Counted from the stretch's first letter, positions 59,386 to 63,592 are shown. The stretch is DNA of 64,000 nt from an uncultured Bacilli bacterium (GCA_934120015.1 CAKOTD010000003.1:3921-67920); one strand, 5' to 3'. A program made the numbers and translations. The notes: generated by a model not told the origin, from the letters alone.

Positions 59386-59442
59386 ATGAGAAGATTAATG
59401 AGAAAATTTAATAAAAAATATGATATGTTATGTACTGCATAA
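59386..59442 (+). CDS. Candidate RiPP precursor peptide, 18 aa: MRRLMRKFNKKYDMLCTA (not in the ORF track)
   Basis: GGGGAGGTG SD 7-8 nt upstream of the ATG. Lies immediately 5' of the YcaO operon, is followed by a hairpin, and has a C-terminal Cys-Thr pair. Confidence 0.55.
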   Translation: MRRLMRKFNKKYDMLCTA

Positions 59443-59460
59443 TTATCATATGAATTAAAT

Positions 59461-59482
59461 AGTCATAGTGAATTCTATGACT
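59461..59482 (+). promoter_or_regulatory. 8-bp perfect hairpin between the peptide gene and the first enzyme gene (possible attenuator or processing site)
   Basis: AGTCATAG-TGAATT-CTATGACT with no U-run. Confidence 0.45.
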
Positions 59483-59501
59483 TCATAAGGAGGCTTAATA
59501 A

Positions 59502-61115
59502 ATGGAAAATATAAAGAGCAAAATAATACCAGAAGATTTAAAAAGTAATATTGATGAAGCAATGGAAAGACAATTATTTAACGCTAATAGATATTATGCA
59601 GAATCCAATCCAGAGATAAGTAGTTTAATGGAAAGGGAATTGCATCAGAGACCAGAAGAATTTTTACATAGGTTGAAAACAAGGTGGATTTGGCATAATA
59701 CTTACTATGAGTTATTATTAGAACCTGCTTTTGATAAAATTATTCGCCAAAATTTTATCGAGTTATCACCAGCGGAATTGGATGATATGATAAAAATATA
59801 CTCAACATCTTGTTTAGTTGATGAAGCAACTCTTGTCATGTCTGGGTCAATAAAAAAATATTTGGATTATAGTTGTAGAAATATAGAAGTCACAGATGAA
59901 AACATTTCATTGAATCAAGCAAATATAATGTTAATTACGCCACCTACTGAAACTTTTTTTGCTCAATATCAAATAGACCATTTATATTACATATACTTAC
60001 TCAAGACAAATGATGCTGATATTCAAAAATTTAAGAATTATCTATTGAATAAATACCATGCTGGTGACGAAAAAATATTTATATCTAGATTCAAGAAGAA
60101 GTTTAAGTATAATTTGTTGATGTCGGATGGAGAATTGTTGGAAGATATTAGACATTATAAAATACCAGAGGAATACAAGATTCAACATTTTTACTTTACT
60201 TTAGAGCATTGTGACAGAAAAGCAATTAGAGATATTATTATTTATGACAATTTAGACGAAAAATTAATAGCATCTAATTTAATTGGAATTTCTGGTTTTC
60301 TATTCAGAAGAAAAATTTTAGAATATCTTAATAATAGTGGCATTTTGAGAAATAATGGTTATATATATGAATTTAACAATGATATAATTATAAATGCATT
60401 AGAAAGTTTAAAAGAAGAAAGGAAAAACAATATGGATAAAAATGTAAGACCATATAAACAAAGAGGTGATACTTGTGCTATTGCTTGTATGATGATGGTA
60501 TTAGAATACTATAAAATTATTCCAAAAGCAAATTGGTATGATGAAAGAAGATTATATAGAACATATGGATCAAAGTATATGAGTGGAACACCATTTTCAG
60601 CTTTAGCATTTTATATGGCAAAGAGTGGGTTAGAAACTACAATTTGTCATGAAAATCAGGATTTATTTAAAAATAATCAAGGTACTATTGATAAGGATGA
60701 TTTTAAATTTGCAATGGATGAATATAAAGAATATTTAAAATATGCAGAAAATAAAGGTGCAAAAATTGTAAATGGTGTGAATATAACTATTGATGTTCTG
60801 AAGCAAAAATTACAAGATGGTAATTTAGTTATATTAGCAGGTGAAGTCTCTGAGTGTTATCATGCAGTTTTACTTACAGGCTATGATAAAGATGGATTTA
60901 AGGTGTGTGATCCGTTATATAAAACAAAGCAAAGCAGAACATTTGATGAAATAGAGAAATTTATGAATACGAGCATAGGTAAATGGTTCATAAGTGTTAA
61001 TGATAAGACAAAAGAAAAAGAAAATTTAATTAATAATTTAGAAAAATTTAATGATGAAGCTCAAATGTTAATGGCAAAACAAGAAAATAGGAGTCTTAAA
61101 AATGTCAAAAAATGA
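59502..61115 (+). CDS. Fusion protein: unknown ~320-aa N-domain + C39-like (papain-fold) cysteine peptidase domain
   Basis: QRGDTC(325)AIACMMMVLEYY, ...CYHAVLLTGYDKDGFKVCDP (Cys/His/Asp arrangement of C39-type peptidases). Confidence 0.65.
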   Translation: MENIKSKIIPEDLKSNIDEAMERQLFNANRYYAESNPEISSLMERELHQRPEEFLHRLKTRWIWHNTYYELLLEPAFDKIIRQNFIELSPAELDDMIKIYSTSCLVDEATLVMSGSIKKYLDYSCRNIEVTDENISLNQANIMLITPPTETFFAQYQIDHLYYIYLLKTNDADIQKFKNYLLNKYHAGDEKIFISRFKKKFKYNLLMSDGELLEDIRHYKIPEEYKIQHFYFTLEHCDRKAIRDIIIYDNLDEKLIASNLIGISGFLFRRKILEYLNNSGILRNNGYIYEFNNDIIINALESLKEERKNNMDKNVRPYKQRGDTCAIACMMMVLEYYKIIPKANWYDERRLYRTYGSKYMSGTPFSALAFYMAKSGLETTICHENQDLFKNNQGTIDKDDFKFAMDEYKEYLKYAENKGAKIVNGVNITIDVLKQKLQDGNLVILAGEVSECYHAVLLTGYDKDGFKVCDPLYKTKQSRTFDEIEKFMNTSIGKWFISVNDKTKEKENLINNLEKFNDEAQMLMAKQENRSLKNVKK

Positions 61116-61437
61116 TTATTTGTTTTATAGTGATTATTTAAAAAAGAGAGAGATTAAATCTAAATCAATACTAATTGCAAAAACTAAAAAATCATATTTG
61201 ATTGGTCCATTGATAAATTCAAAATTTGATGAAAAATCATTTTATAAGAGAATTAAATCTAATAGTATATATGCATTTAATATATATAAAAAAATGTTTA
61301 AAAGAAAATGTAACTTGCTGATTAACAAACATAAAGTTAATTTAAGAAATAATCAAATAATTGAGATATATAAAGATGGAGGAATGGTTTTACATTCAAT
61401 ATTAAAAGTACCAGGTGAAAATGATGAAAAAAAATAA
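61102..61437 (+). CDS. Small basic protein (111 aa), possible stand-alone peptide-recognition or docking partner of the YcaO
   Basis: Overlaps both neighbours. Its size and position match the partner proteins of cyclodehydratases. No motif recognised with certainty. Confidence 0.4.
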   Translation: MSKNDYLFYSDYLKKREIKSKSILIAKTKKSYLIGPLINSKFDEKSFYKRIKSNSIYAFNIYKKMFKRKCNLLINKHKVNLRNNQIIEIYKDGGMVLHSILKVPGENDEKK

Positions 61438-62701
61438 GTTAATATTAAACAAAAAAGAAATAATAAATATTTTAGGAAAAGAGTATGAAAGATTGTCAGA
61501 TATATTTAGTGATAAATTTGGAATAGTAAATGCTATGCTGGAACGCCATGAACTAGATAAATATAATCTTTTCATGTATCAATGTTTAAGTGCAAATACT
61601 GTTGATTTATTTGGATTGAGTAGAGAAGTTTCTAGTGGTGGGCTAGGGGTAAACGAAGATAAAAGGATTGCTATGACTAGTTGTTTAGCGGAAGCATTAG
61701 AGCGCTATTGTATGTCTTATATTCCTAAAAAAGAAATTATAAGAAATACCAAAGTAAATTTGAGAAAGGAAAACACTTTTGATAAATTTTTTACATATAG
61801 TGAAGAGCAATATAATAAGTCAGATATATTTCTAAATCCTAATAAGGAAAAAATAGAATGGACAAAGATTTATAATATTGACAATAGAAAGAAGTTTAAA
61901 TATTGGCCTGCAAGTTTGATATATTTACCATATGATTTAAATAAAATTGTAGCAGAAACGACTTCAACGGGTATGGCGGCTGGCTTTACATTAGAGGAAT
62001 GTATACAGAGTGGATTGTTAGAATTAATAGAAAGAGATGCTTTAATGATTAATTTTATGCAACGTTTGAATCCACCTGAAATAAATTTAGAAACTCTAGA
62101 TGAAGAAAATCTAAAATTAATAAAAATAATAAAAAAAGAATATGATATAAAGATATATAAGTTATATTCTGATATTAAAGTTCCAATTTATTTGTCTATT
62201 ATTTATAAAAATGAGAAAAAACATATACATTATGGTATAGGTGCAAGTGCTAATATGAATTCGGATTATGCTATTAATAAATCATTAAAAGAATGTCTAT
62301 TTACATATTTTTATTCTTTAAATATAATGGATGTCCGACAAGATGATCCTAAAAAAATTAAAACATTATACGAACACTTTTTATATTATCAGGGCAATAA
62401 TTTTAAAAAATTATTATTTAAAAGTAAATCAATTAATTACAAAAAAGAGATTATATCATTTGATGATTTAATAAAAAATTTAGAATTGCAAAATATAGAT
62501 GTATATTATAAAGAATTAACCACTGATGATATAAAGAAAACAGGCATTAAGGTGGTTAAAGTTATTGCTCCAAGTTTAATTGATTTAAATAAGAGTCATA
62601 TATATCCAAGACTGGGAGCAGAGCGATTTTTCATTGTACCAAAGAAATTGAATTTAAAATATAATAAGAAGCTAACGGATATGCCTCATCCGTTTCCATA
62701 G
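61415..62701 (+). CDS. YcaO-domain cyclodehydratase (azoline-forming type)
   Basis: SSGGLG..., CLAEALERYC, TSTGMAAG, LLELIERDA, and a C-terminal Pro-rich end MPHPFP-stop. Alternative starts at ATG 61421 or 61424. Confidence 0.85.
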   Translation: MKMMKKNKLILNKKEIINILGKEYERLSDIFSDKFGIVNAMLERHELDKYNLFMYQCLSANTVDLFGLSREVSSGGLGVNEDKRIAMTSCLAEALERYCMSYIPKKEIIRNTKVNLRKENTFDKFFTYSEEQYNKSDIFLNPNKEKIEWTKIYNIDNRKKFKYWPASLIYLPYDLNKIVAETTSTGMAAGFTLEECIQSGLLELIERDALMINFMQRLNPPEINLETLDEENLKLIKIIKKEYDIKIYKLYSDIKVPIYLSIIYKNEKKHIHYGIGASANMNSDYAINKSLKECLFTYFYSLNIMDVRQDDPKKIKTLYEHFLYYQGNNFKKLLFKSKSINYKKEIISFDDLIKNLELQNIDVYYKELTTDDIKKTGIKVVKVIAPSLIDLNKSHIYPRLGAERFFIVPKKLNLKYNKKLTDMPHPFP

Positions 62702-62719
62702 AATAGGGGGTTCATAATT

Positions 62720-63592
62720 ATGAGTGAAAAGGATAAATTAGACATTTTAATATACAATGCATATAGTGATATATGTGATGATAGTAGTCATATTCATAAA
62801 CTAGAATCAATTGCAAGTTATTACAATGTTAGCTTAGATTATTTACATAACAGATATTTATGGTTAATAAGCATGGAAATTAATCCTAATTTTTGCCATT
62901 TGGATGAAAATCATAATTGGGTATATAAGATATTTGATGAATATAATAAGATGCTTAATGAAAATAATATTGAGTACTATTATACTAGTGGTATTCTTGC
63001 GTACTTGTTAGTTGATAAAAATTTAGAAAGATATCATCATGATTTAGATATTTTTATAAATATGGATTGTTTGGAGAGGCTAGAGCATATTTGCAATAAT
63101 TATAATTTTTCTTTTGAGCGAAAAATTGGTGATCGTGGTGGTGGGACAAAAAGAGTTATGTTAAAAATGTATTATCGAGATATGATTGATATACCAATAA
63201 CTATTTTTATGTATGTTAAGCAAAAAGATGGATCAATTACTCAAAAAGATTATTTTTGGGATGAATATAACAAGGAATTTGTTGAATACATTCATAATTC
63301 TCCACTCATTAGTAAATTAAGTTTTTCTGAATCTCCGAGAATTCATAATAATATTCAATATTATTCTATTACACCAGAGGCATTATTTCTATGTAAAGTA
63401 GGAAATAGACCAAAAGATATATATGATTGCACAATTTTCAGTGACATTATAGATAGAGACAAACTTGAAAAATTAGAAGATGCATTTAAATATAATCTTC
63501 CTAATAATGTTGTTAATGCTGAAAATGATGTATTCTATAATTATGTTTTTAAAAATAGAATGAATAAAAAGGTGCTGATAAAATATGATTGA
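62720..63592 (+). CDS. Pol-beta-fold nucleotidyltransferase (Lnu/ANT(2'')-like)
   Basis: SGILAYLLVDKNLERYHHDLDIFI (G-x-n-D-x-D) and C-terminal GNRPKDIYD. Confidence 0.6.
   Translation: MSEKDKLDILIYNAYSDICDDSSHIHKLESIASYYNVSLDYLHNRYLWLISMEINPNFCHLDENHNWVYKIFDEYNKMLNENNIEYYYTSGILAYLLVDKNLERYHHDLDIFINMDCLERLEHICNNYNFSFERKIGDRGGGTKRVMLKMYYRDMIDIPITIFMYVKQKDGSITQKDYFWDEYNKEFVEYIHNSPLISKLSFSESPRIHNNIQYYSITPEALFLCKVGNRPKDIYDCTIFSDIIDRDKLEKLEDAFKYNLPNNVVNAENDVFYNYVFKNRMNKKVLIKYD

Follow-up and report, generated by a model that had tools for sequence, protein, structure and literature searches.

A four-gene YcaO cassette with a very short, conserved peptide gene in uncultured gut Bacilli points to an undescribed family of ribosomal peptides

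Introduction

Among the closest described systems are the thiazole/oxazole-modified microcin (TOMM) pathways of streptolysin S, microcin B17, and plantazolicin, pathways for peptides that are made on the ribosome and modified after translation (RiPPs), in which a SagD-like YcaO, with its ATP-site motifs and a PxPxP C terminus, is accompanied by a flavin mononucleotide (FMN) dehydrogenase, an E1-like/Ocin-ThiF protein, a CaaX-type or TldD/E protease, and an ATP-binding cassette (ABC) exporter, the precursor having a long Cys/Ser/Thr-rich core. The present study concerns a 64,000-nucleotide stretch of DNA from an uncultured Bacilli bacterium (GCA_934120015.1, CAKOTD010000003.1:3921-67920; the window), in which a YcaO gene lies in a compact cassette headed by an 18-codon peptide gene. 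The cassette shares with the TOMM type the SagD-like YcaO and its motifs, a dedicated protease, and a ribosomal precursor with Cys and Thr at the end that would be modified. It differs in that only a partner protein of ~110 residues stands in place of the dehydrogenase and the E1-like protein; the precursor comprises 14-18 residues with one Cys-Thr pair; the protease domain is C39-like, soluble, and joined to a helical domain; and there is no ABC exporter.

In the bottromycin pathway, the YcaOs BotC/BotCD likewise lack a full E1-like partner and form a single thiazoline near the C terminus of a short core, as is proposed below for this cassette. That pathway, however, uses a follower peptide, the heterocycle becoming terminal only after follower removal, and its accessory enzymes (radical S-adenosylmethionine (SAM) methyltransferases, P450, and amidohydrolase) are not those found here, where a conserved small partner protein is always present. 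Very short precursors with an invariant core are also known from the pyrroloquinoline quinone (PqqA), mycofactocin (MftA), pantocin A (PaaP), and microcin C (MccA) pathways, in which processing is cytoplasmic and often without a dedicated exporter, and of which microcin C joins its peptide to a nucleotide; these pathways use radical SAM or E1-like enzymes rather than YcaO, and have no helical/C39 fusion. The C39 domains of ABC exporters (PCAT type) resemble the protease domain described here in their papain-like fold and conserved Gln/Cys/His/Asp residues, but are fused to a transporter and act on double-glycine substrates, whereas the present domain is joined to a 310-residue helical domain and has the broader Peptidase_C39_2 as its best Pfam match.

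Hidden Markov model (HMM) searches of the cassette, together with the Pfam-listed neighbors of the related loci looked up, gave no FMN dehydrogenase (SagB/McbC; PF00881, TIGR03605) and no E1-like/Ocin-ThiF protein, TfuA, or ABC exporter. The absence of these functions had been proposed in a first-pass annotation, made from the window sequence alone, and proved to be the same in the window and in the related loci; its view of the architecture as unlike the RiPP classes known to it was also supported, the cassette falling outside the streptolysin S/microcin B17 type, the thioamide systems, and the double-glycine C39 systems. The antiSMASH rule for linear azole peptides, in the form quoted in one source, needs a dehydrogenase-type domain together with a YcaO (PMC13289728), and a cluster without a dehydrogenase would therefore escape the rule as quoted there. 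The full-text literature (open-access papers and bioRxiv) gave no account of the peptide motif or of the gene combination. The cassette thus appears to represent an uncharacterized YcaO-dependent ribosomal peptide family, which may deserve a class of its own once its product is known.

Organization of the cassette and conservation of the peptide

The core of the cassette consists of four strictly linked genes, encoding the peptide, a helical/C39 fusion protein, a partner protein of ~110 residues, and a SagD-like YcaO, with the following features in the window:

59371-59379, plus strand: Shine-Dalgarno sequence GGGGAGGTG of the peptide gene, read directly, 6 nucleotides upstream of the ATG
59386-59442, plus strand: precursor peptide gene of 18 codons, ATG to TAA, encoding MRRLMRKFNKKYDMLCTA, conserved beside 22 related loci
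59461-59482, plus strand: stem-loop 3' of the peptide stop, with a perfect 8-bp stem and a 6-nucleotide loop, without a T-run
59502-60437, plus strand: N-terminal all-helical domain of the 537-residue fusion protein (residues 1 to ~312), from the AlphaFold2 model
60441-61115, plus strand: cysteine peptidase domain of the fusion protein, C39-like with a papain fold (PF13529; PF11814 and PF03412 weaker)
61102-61437, plus strand: basic partner protein of 111 residues, pI 9.9, always immediately 5' of the YcaO gene
61421-62701, plus strand: SagD-type YcaO of 426 residues ending in PHPFP, from PF02624, TIGR03604, and PDB comparison

The gene for the 537-residue protein (59502-61115) and that for the partner protein overlap by 14 nucleotides, and the end of the latter overlaps the YcaO start (ATG 61421 or GTG 61415). 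These overlaps, the 18-residue open reading frame (ORF), and its hairpin had all been described in the first-pass annotation and were confirmed from the sequence. Directly upstream of the cassette lies a RelA/SpoT homologue.

A YcaO scan of one genome per species yielded ten loci from uncultured gut Bacilli, including 'Mycoplasma sp. CAG:472'. Contigs with remoter homologues were then added, with identities down to 50% for the YcaO and 36% for the fusion protein. Of the 25 loci in all (L001-L025), 22 carry a fusion-protein homologue of at least 36% identity. The ten gut Bacilli loci share the order relA, small ORF, 537-residue gene, 111-residue gene, and YcaO wherever the contig suffices, the contigs of L007 and L008 beginning too late to include relA. 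The fusion protein, partner protein, and YcaO occur together in 19 of the 25 loci (tblastn; YcaO identity 50-90%), with a partner-sized gene in the matching position of L023 and L025 from gene calls only. The peptide gene lies 3' of the protease gene in five loci (L018, L021, L022, L023, and L025), and L022 and L025 contain the four core genes and nothing else.

The small ORF adjoins all 22 cassettes with a fusion homologue at this level, the YcaO being visible in 21 of them. Its association with homologous YcaO genes persists as far as 50% YcaO identity, under several gene orders and across at least two phyla, in keeping with the link between the two that had been proposed from the window. 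Across the 22 cassettes the peptide has the general form [KR]-K-F-x-[KR]-K-x-D-[LM]-[LMI]-C-T-[AGS]-stop, and the close gut Bacilli loci that reach far enough (9/9) have the form M-[RK]-K-L-M-[RK]-K-F-[ND]-[KR]-K-Y-D-M-L-C-T-A. The more divergent peptides are as follows:

L011: VRKLMKKFNKKYDMMCTG
L015: MKKLMRKFNKKYDLMCTG
L013: MSKLMKKFNGKRDLLCTA
L016: MRKLFRKFNKKFDLLCTA
L017: MKKLLKKFERKLDMLCTA
L024: MRKLLKKFERKLDMLCTA
L018: MKFIKKFDKKYDLLCTA
L021: MRKFNKKTDLLCTA
L022: MKQKFARKLDLLCTS
L023: MKRLQKFKVKVDLICTA

At L025 (3965-4012) the peptide gene is put out of frame by an A8 run, where A7 would give MRKFNKKTDLLCTA, identical to the L021 peptide; the extra base reflects an error in the assembly or else a homopolymer switch.

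Residues M1, L4, K7, F8, K11, D13, C16, and T17 are invariant in the 18-codon versions, with synonymous variation at L4 (CTT/TTA/TTG), F8 (TTC/TTT), K11 (AAA/AAG), D13 (GAC/GAT), C16 (TGC/TGT), and T17 (ACA/ACT). Codon differences over 55 pairs comprised 222 synonymous and 223 non-synonymous changes, the amino acid changes being mostly conservative (e.g. K/R and L/M), and mean nucleotide identity was 80% in the peptide ORF versus ~65% in the flanking 50 nucleotides. A GGAGG-type site is found at an equal distance from the start in nearly all orthologous loci. Judged by the synonymous changes at invariant residues, the higher identity of the ORF than of its flanks, and its own ribosome-binding sites, the small ORF is a genuine protein-coding gene under selection as protein; it is uncalled in the gene annotations of the public assemblies for the related loci looked up. 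Because the peptide is carried near-unchanged beside a YcaO, a small partner protein, and a cysteine protease from Bacilli to a candidate phylum, it very probably serves as the substrate in an undescribed ribosomal peptide natural product family.

An alternative in-frame start, GTG 59377, was rejected, as it lies inside the ribosome-binding site and the orthologues give it no support. The hairpin at 59461-59482 (-11.6 kcal/mol, z = -2.0 on folding) leaves the next ribosome-binding site free and is probably an mRNA stabilizer, or a partial terminator through which the precursor-to-enzyme ratio is set. Behind the peptide stop, 13 of 15 loci have a stable hairpin, its sequences being unrelated between loci. 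The window has a G+C content of 25%. Rfam gave no RNA element at 59200-59600, and a promoter scan found promoter-like sites no more often than expected by chance. Between the relA stop and the peptide gene lies an inverted repeat, ATGAG-TTTATAGGGAT-CTCAT (59327-59347), which recurs as GAGTTTATAG(G/T)GA(N)CTC, within a variable spacer, across most gut Bacilli loci (L001-L010 and L015). The repeat may be an operator or a promoter element; the consensus promoter scan gave no match there.

The YcaO and its partner protein

The YcaO matches PF02624 with E = 4.7e-43, and its best NCBIfam model is TIGR03604, the SagD family of thiazole/oxazole maturases (E = 1.5e-60). Scores are far lower on the YcaO-type kinase-domain model TIGR00702 (75 bits, versus 205 on TIGR03604) and on the methanogen thioamidation model TIGR03266 (79 bits), and among solved structures the nearest are MusD, LynD, and TruD, which are azoline-forming heterocyclases. 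The motifs AEALERY and ELIERDA and the terminal MPHPFP are all present, and PHPFP is likewise the C terminus of each YcaO that was checked in related loci. A PxPxP C terminus is canonical for azoline-forming YcaOs (PMC12338566). By model scores and motifs, the enzyme is of the azoline-forming type, and the grouping with azoline formers suggested earlier held, rather than one with the Escherichia coli type; an E. coli-type or thioamide-type YcaO was rejected from the HMM scores and from the lack of TfuA in any locus.

The 111-residue protein is restricted to the cassette, with 115 clusters, none of which has a Pfam domain. NCBIfam and Pfam gave no E1-like or Ocin-ThiF match for any of the four proteins, and the profile of the 111-residue protein gave no significant sequence match in the PDB. 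The AlphaFold2 model (predicted local distance difference test (pLDDT) score 82.5) has the order strand-helix-strand-strand-helix-helix-strand-strand, for which the Foldseek matches were weak, several of them being to E1-like enzymes (PaaA, E = 0.027; McbB; and ThiF). A canonical RiPP recognition element (RRE), with a three-stranded sheet followed by a three-helix bundle, was not supported, the topology being different and no RRE structure being among the significant Foldseek matches. The strict adjacency to the YcaO gene and the overlap with it suggest that the protein acts as a partner of the YcaO. The earlier suggestion of a recognition or docking partner is thus retained as regards the pairing with YcaO, but the protein is not a recognizable RRE.

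The fusion protein

The C-terminal part of the 537-residue protein matches Peptidase_C39_2 (PF13529) over residues 314-471 with E = 5.9e-11. Residues Gln320, Cys325, His454, and Asp470 are invariant over 35 sequences with identities down to 17%, in a layout that we take to be the catalytic arrangement of C39 peptidases. The C39-type domain expected from the first reading was accordingly found both in the Pfam match and in the conserved catalytic residues, and by these the protease looks active. None of the peptides contains Gly-Gly, and the fusion protein has no transporter domain.

The N-terminal part, residues 1 to ~312, has no Pfam or NCBIfam match and was modeled with confidence by AlphaFold2 as 15 helices, with a pLDDT of 91.9. 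No PDB fold could be assigned to it: the best Foldseek E value was 0.46, with TM-scores of at most 0.23, and the matches (pore-forming toxins, BAR domains, and 14-3-3 proteins) are meaningless. Lys118, His186, Arg196, Asp249, and Glu253 are invariant over the same 35 sequences, and this conserved polar site makes it unlikely that the domain is a mere spacer. An exhaustive search gave 214 representatives at 50% clustering, which are mostly full-length fusions.

A metagenome scan also revealed a distant branch of the fusion family (L019 and L020; 22-30% identity) without YcaO. The member in L020 (5905-8012), ~30% identical to the scan query, lies on a contig of 50% G+C with no YcaO nearby, where a small α/β hydrolase gene overlaps the fusion-protein stop; the fusion protein would thus also work in YcaO-free settings. 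At L021 (2977-8642), the peptide and fusion protein genes are followed by genes for an AMP-binding enzyme, a GNAT acetyltransferase, a methyltransferase, and a HisKA_7TM/GAF kinase, and neither a YcaO nor a partner protein is found within the 9 kb available. L021 may represent a variant of the pathway with another way of activating the peptide.

Hosts of the cassette

The cassette is found in gut Bacilli and in a metagenome-assembled genome (MAG) labeled Clostridia (L016), and clustering at 90% identity places the L018 fusion protein together with one encoded in a 'Candidatus Paceibacterota' MAG. Gut metagenomes contain the family in abundance, its protein clusters at 90% identity numbering in the hundreds, and there was no cultured host among the records found. 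The genomes of the hosts are apparently small, one related contig measuring 1.19 Mb. A tblastn search of a plasmid collection gave no match to the fusion protein or the nucleotidyltransferase described below. At L017 (1-15617) the cassette is on an apparent mobile element (Mob_Pre, serine recombinase, TnpV, and relaxase) and adjoins a cyclic-oligonucleotide-based antiphage signaling system (CBASS) pair, consisting of an SMODS/DncV-like cyclase and a SAVED effector.

The fifth gene and other accessory genes

A fifth gene follows the YcaO in the window:

62720-63592, plus strand: probable Pol-beta-fold nucleotidyltransferase of 290 residues, accessory or tailoring, with the motif SG-x16-DLD

Ser90, Gly91, Arg104, His106, His107, Asp108, and Asp110 are invariant in this family, with R-x-H-H preceding D-L-D. 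The SG-x16-DLD motif fits the Pol-beta nucleotidyltransferase signature, and the protein also fits R-x-H-x-D-[IL]-D, which we take to be the motif of Lnu/ANT(2'') enzymes. The orthologues match PF14907 (E = 0.0027-0.017) and PF10706, the aminoglycoside 2''-adenylyltransferase family (E = 0.034), below threshold, and nothing beyond chance-level haemagglutinin matches came from sequence searches of the PDB. As to the nucleotidyltransferase proposed from the window, the motif proved invariant, but the family matches are sub-threshold. The further claim that this gene closes the operon was not upheld, since thiE starts at 63585 and overlaps its stop. Homologues of the 290-residue protein are found in most cassettes but are missing from seven loci (L011, L012, L015, L018, L022, L023, and L025), and the gene is accordingly accessory rather than core.

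Other enzymes share or replace this position. At L024 (4379-6679), the protease gene is separated from the partner-YcaO pair by genes for a nucleotidyltransferase, a MoaA-like radical SAM enzyme, in which both MoaA-type cluster motifs were seen by eye, and a NUDIX hydrolase. The same trio is 3' of the YcaO gene at L009 (7288-9485), and at L013 (8278-10063) a MoaA-like radical SAM enzyme is joined to a cassette with a nucleotidyltransferase and a NUDIX hydrolase. The MoaA-like enzymes of these three loci score 114-131 bits on moaA models, under the cut-offs, with weak pVip matches. The set points to a tailoring module derived from nucleotides. In L017, the place of the radical SAM enzyme and NUDIX hydrolase after the nucleotidyltransferase is taken by a CMP-kinase/NadR-like protein, and in L018 and L023 an α/β hydrolase occupies the accessory slot 3' of the YcaO gene. 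The clade of peptides ending in C-T-G has, instead of the nucleotidyltransferase, a Cys/His protein of 121 to 122 residues (L011 8287-8655 and L015 8286-8651) with a papain-like pattern of Cys and His-x-x-x-x-x-Asp (GSCVIRTF ... DYHMFPIID) and no Pfam match.

Proposed pathway and alternative explanations

It appears fairly probable that the cassette is a ribosomal-peptide modification system in which the YcaO makes an azoline at Cys16, and perhaps at Thr17, and the protease then trims the peptide; the modified residue and its chemistry, the cut site, the roles of the partner protein and helical domain, and the purpose of the product are what we infer. The basic N-terminal part of the peptide, K-F-x-K-K-x-D, would probably be the recognition element and [LM]-[LMI]-C-T-[AGS] the core. 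This N-terminal part, probably helical, with F8, residue 12, and residue 15 on one face of the putative helix, would be recognized by either the partner protein or the helical domain, or by the two together. With ATP, the YcaO would phosphorylate the Leu15-Cys16 amide oxygen, allowing the Cys thiol to close a thiazoline, and Thr17 could possibly become a methyloxazoline. The ~110-residue partner, translationally coupled to the YcaO, would replace the E1-like partner in presenting the substrate or activating the enzyme, and because there is no dehydrogenase, the ring would stay at the azoline level. The C39-like domain, acting in the cytoplasm, would cut at a site other than Gly-Gly, perhaps near the invariant Asp13, and the nucleotidyltransferase would serve in tailoring the product or protecting the producer.

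Several points weigh against this pathway. The YcaO scores 205 bits on TIGR03604, just under the cut-off of 219, and thioamides and amidines are also among the products of YcaOs. The partner protein is not recognizable as an RRE or as an E1-like protein, and in characterized partner-dependent cyclodehydratases the partner is much larger. L021 has the peptide and the fusion protein without a YcaO in the sequence available. Finally, no exporter or immunity gene is linked to the cassette, and the single Cys-Thr core is invariant across phyla, unlike typical antimicrobial azole peptides. As the peptide is near-invariant across phyla, there is no exporter, and the hosts have apparently small genomes, the product could be a signal, a cofactor, or a peptide-nucleotide rather than an antimicrobial.

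There are two alternatives for the product. The peptide could be a disposable scaffold, as are PqqA, MftA, and PaaP, the product being the modified C-terminal 3-5 residues with an intracellular or signaling role. A core that is near-invariant from gut Bacilli to a cluster including a Candidatus Paceibacterota MAG would fit such a role, as would the lack of an exporter or immunity gene in any locus, the fixed chromosomal place after relA across the gut Bacilli loci, and the 7TM histidine kinases beside the cassette in L018 and L021. We nevertheless think it rather unlikely, given that no receptor or client enzyme was identified, that the kinase linkage is inconsistent across loci, and that the mobile element of L017 better suits an accessory or competitive trait than a housekeeping cofactor. 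Still less likely, in our estimate improbable, is a peptide-nucleotide conjugate, in which a nucleoside monophosphate would be added, e.g. on the Thr17 hydroxyl, the nucleotide in some lineages first being altered by the radical SAM enzyme and trimmed by the NUDIX hydrolase. The presence of a nucleotidyltransferase-like gene in most cassettes, the trio in L024 and L009, and the CMP-kinase/NadR-like protein of L017 all speak for a conjugate, but the nucleotidyltransferase assignment is sub-threshold, seven loci lack the gene, the radical SAM enzyme and the NUDIX hydrolase are both missing from the window, and the 290-residue enzyme could equally be an Lnu/ANT-type self-resistance enzyme.

A third explanation denies the peptide a role as substrate, making the small ORF a regulatory leader, acting by attenuation or stalling, or a chance ORF, with the enzymes acting on another substrate. 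In the window the ORF is indeed first in the operon and followed by a hairpin, and stalling peptides are also conserved at the amino acid level. A role as operon leader is, however, ruled out by the gene order in the five loci where the peptide gene is 3' of the protease gene, together with the geometry of the hairpin, which leaves the next ribosome-binding site unsequestered. Conservation is moreover strictest at C-T-[AGS], beside an enzyme type that modifies Cys and Thr, and no Rfam element was found at 59200-59600, so that this explanation as a whole is very improbable.

Returning to the azoline pathway, we would tentatively extend it, as a proposal that we ourselves regard as doubtful, to a product consisting of an azoline tri- to pentapeptide derived from Cys-Thr-Ala, nucleotidylated in some lineages, that would have a universally conserved target or function in signaling or as a cofactor. 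Its hosts would be bacteria with reduced genomes that depend on a host (Paceibacterota, and gut Bacilli of the 'Mycoplasma sp. CAG:472' type), and the helical domain would be a RiPP enzyme or recognition domain of a new type. As it stands, this minimal system of four small genes breaks several rules of the well-studied YcaO-dependent RiPPs at once: its precursor is among the shortest and is near-invariant across phyla; it has no dehydrogenase, E1-like partner, or exporter; and its partner protein and helical domain are without a recognizable relative. If the proposed pathway is true, the cassette would constitute a new class or subclass of ribosomal peptides, would show that a YcaO is able to work with a 110-residue partner, and would open a first route to a metabolite conserved in symbionts with reduced genomes.

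Neighboring genes

PADLOC gave no match for the four core proteins and only weak pVip and VakA matches for accessory neighbors, and a search of the PHROGs phage families gave nothing useful. The gene that overlaps the fifth gene extends to the end of the window:

63585-64000, plus strand: thiE (thiamine phosphate synthase), cut by the window end, overlapping the stop of the 290-residue gene

Its orthologues in L001 (7905-8543) and L016 (11120-11755) score above the TIGR00693 cut-off, and neither thiM nor thiD lies beside thiE. The overlap with the stop of the nucleotidyltransferase-like gene recurs in the window, the close gut Bacilli loci, and the Clostridia-labeled L016, and could reflect either mere synteny or a functional link between the thiazoline system and thiamine. 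A route from the peptide to the thiazole of thiamine was set aside by chemical reasoning: in a thiazoline derived from Cys the substituents would be on C2 and C4, but the thiazole of thiamine bears them on C4 and C5, with hydrogen at C2.

Just upstream of relA, a further operon (window 53214-57630) begins with a 213-residue protein and continues with an AMP-binding enzyme (53852-55597). It also encodes a hybrid histidine kinase (55600-57630), whose N terminus is a multi-pass membrane region. The AMP-binding/kinase pair is not found within 6 kb of the cassette in the close relatives L001-L010. A full-length homologous pair of 29-30% identity lies downstream of the cassette in L015 (10397-13999), and HisKA_7TM kinases flank the cassette in L018 and L021.

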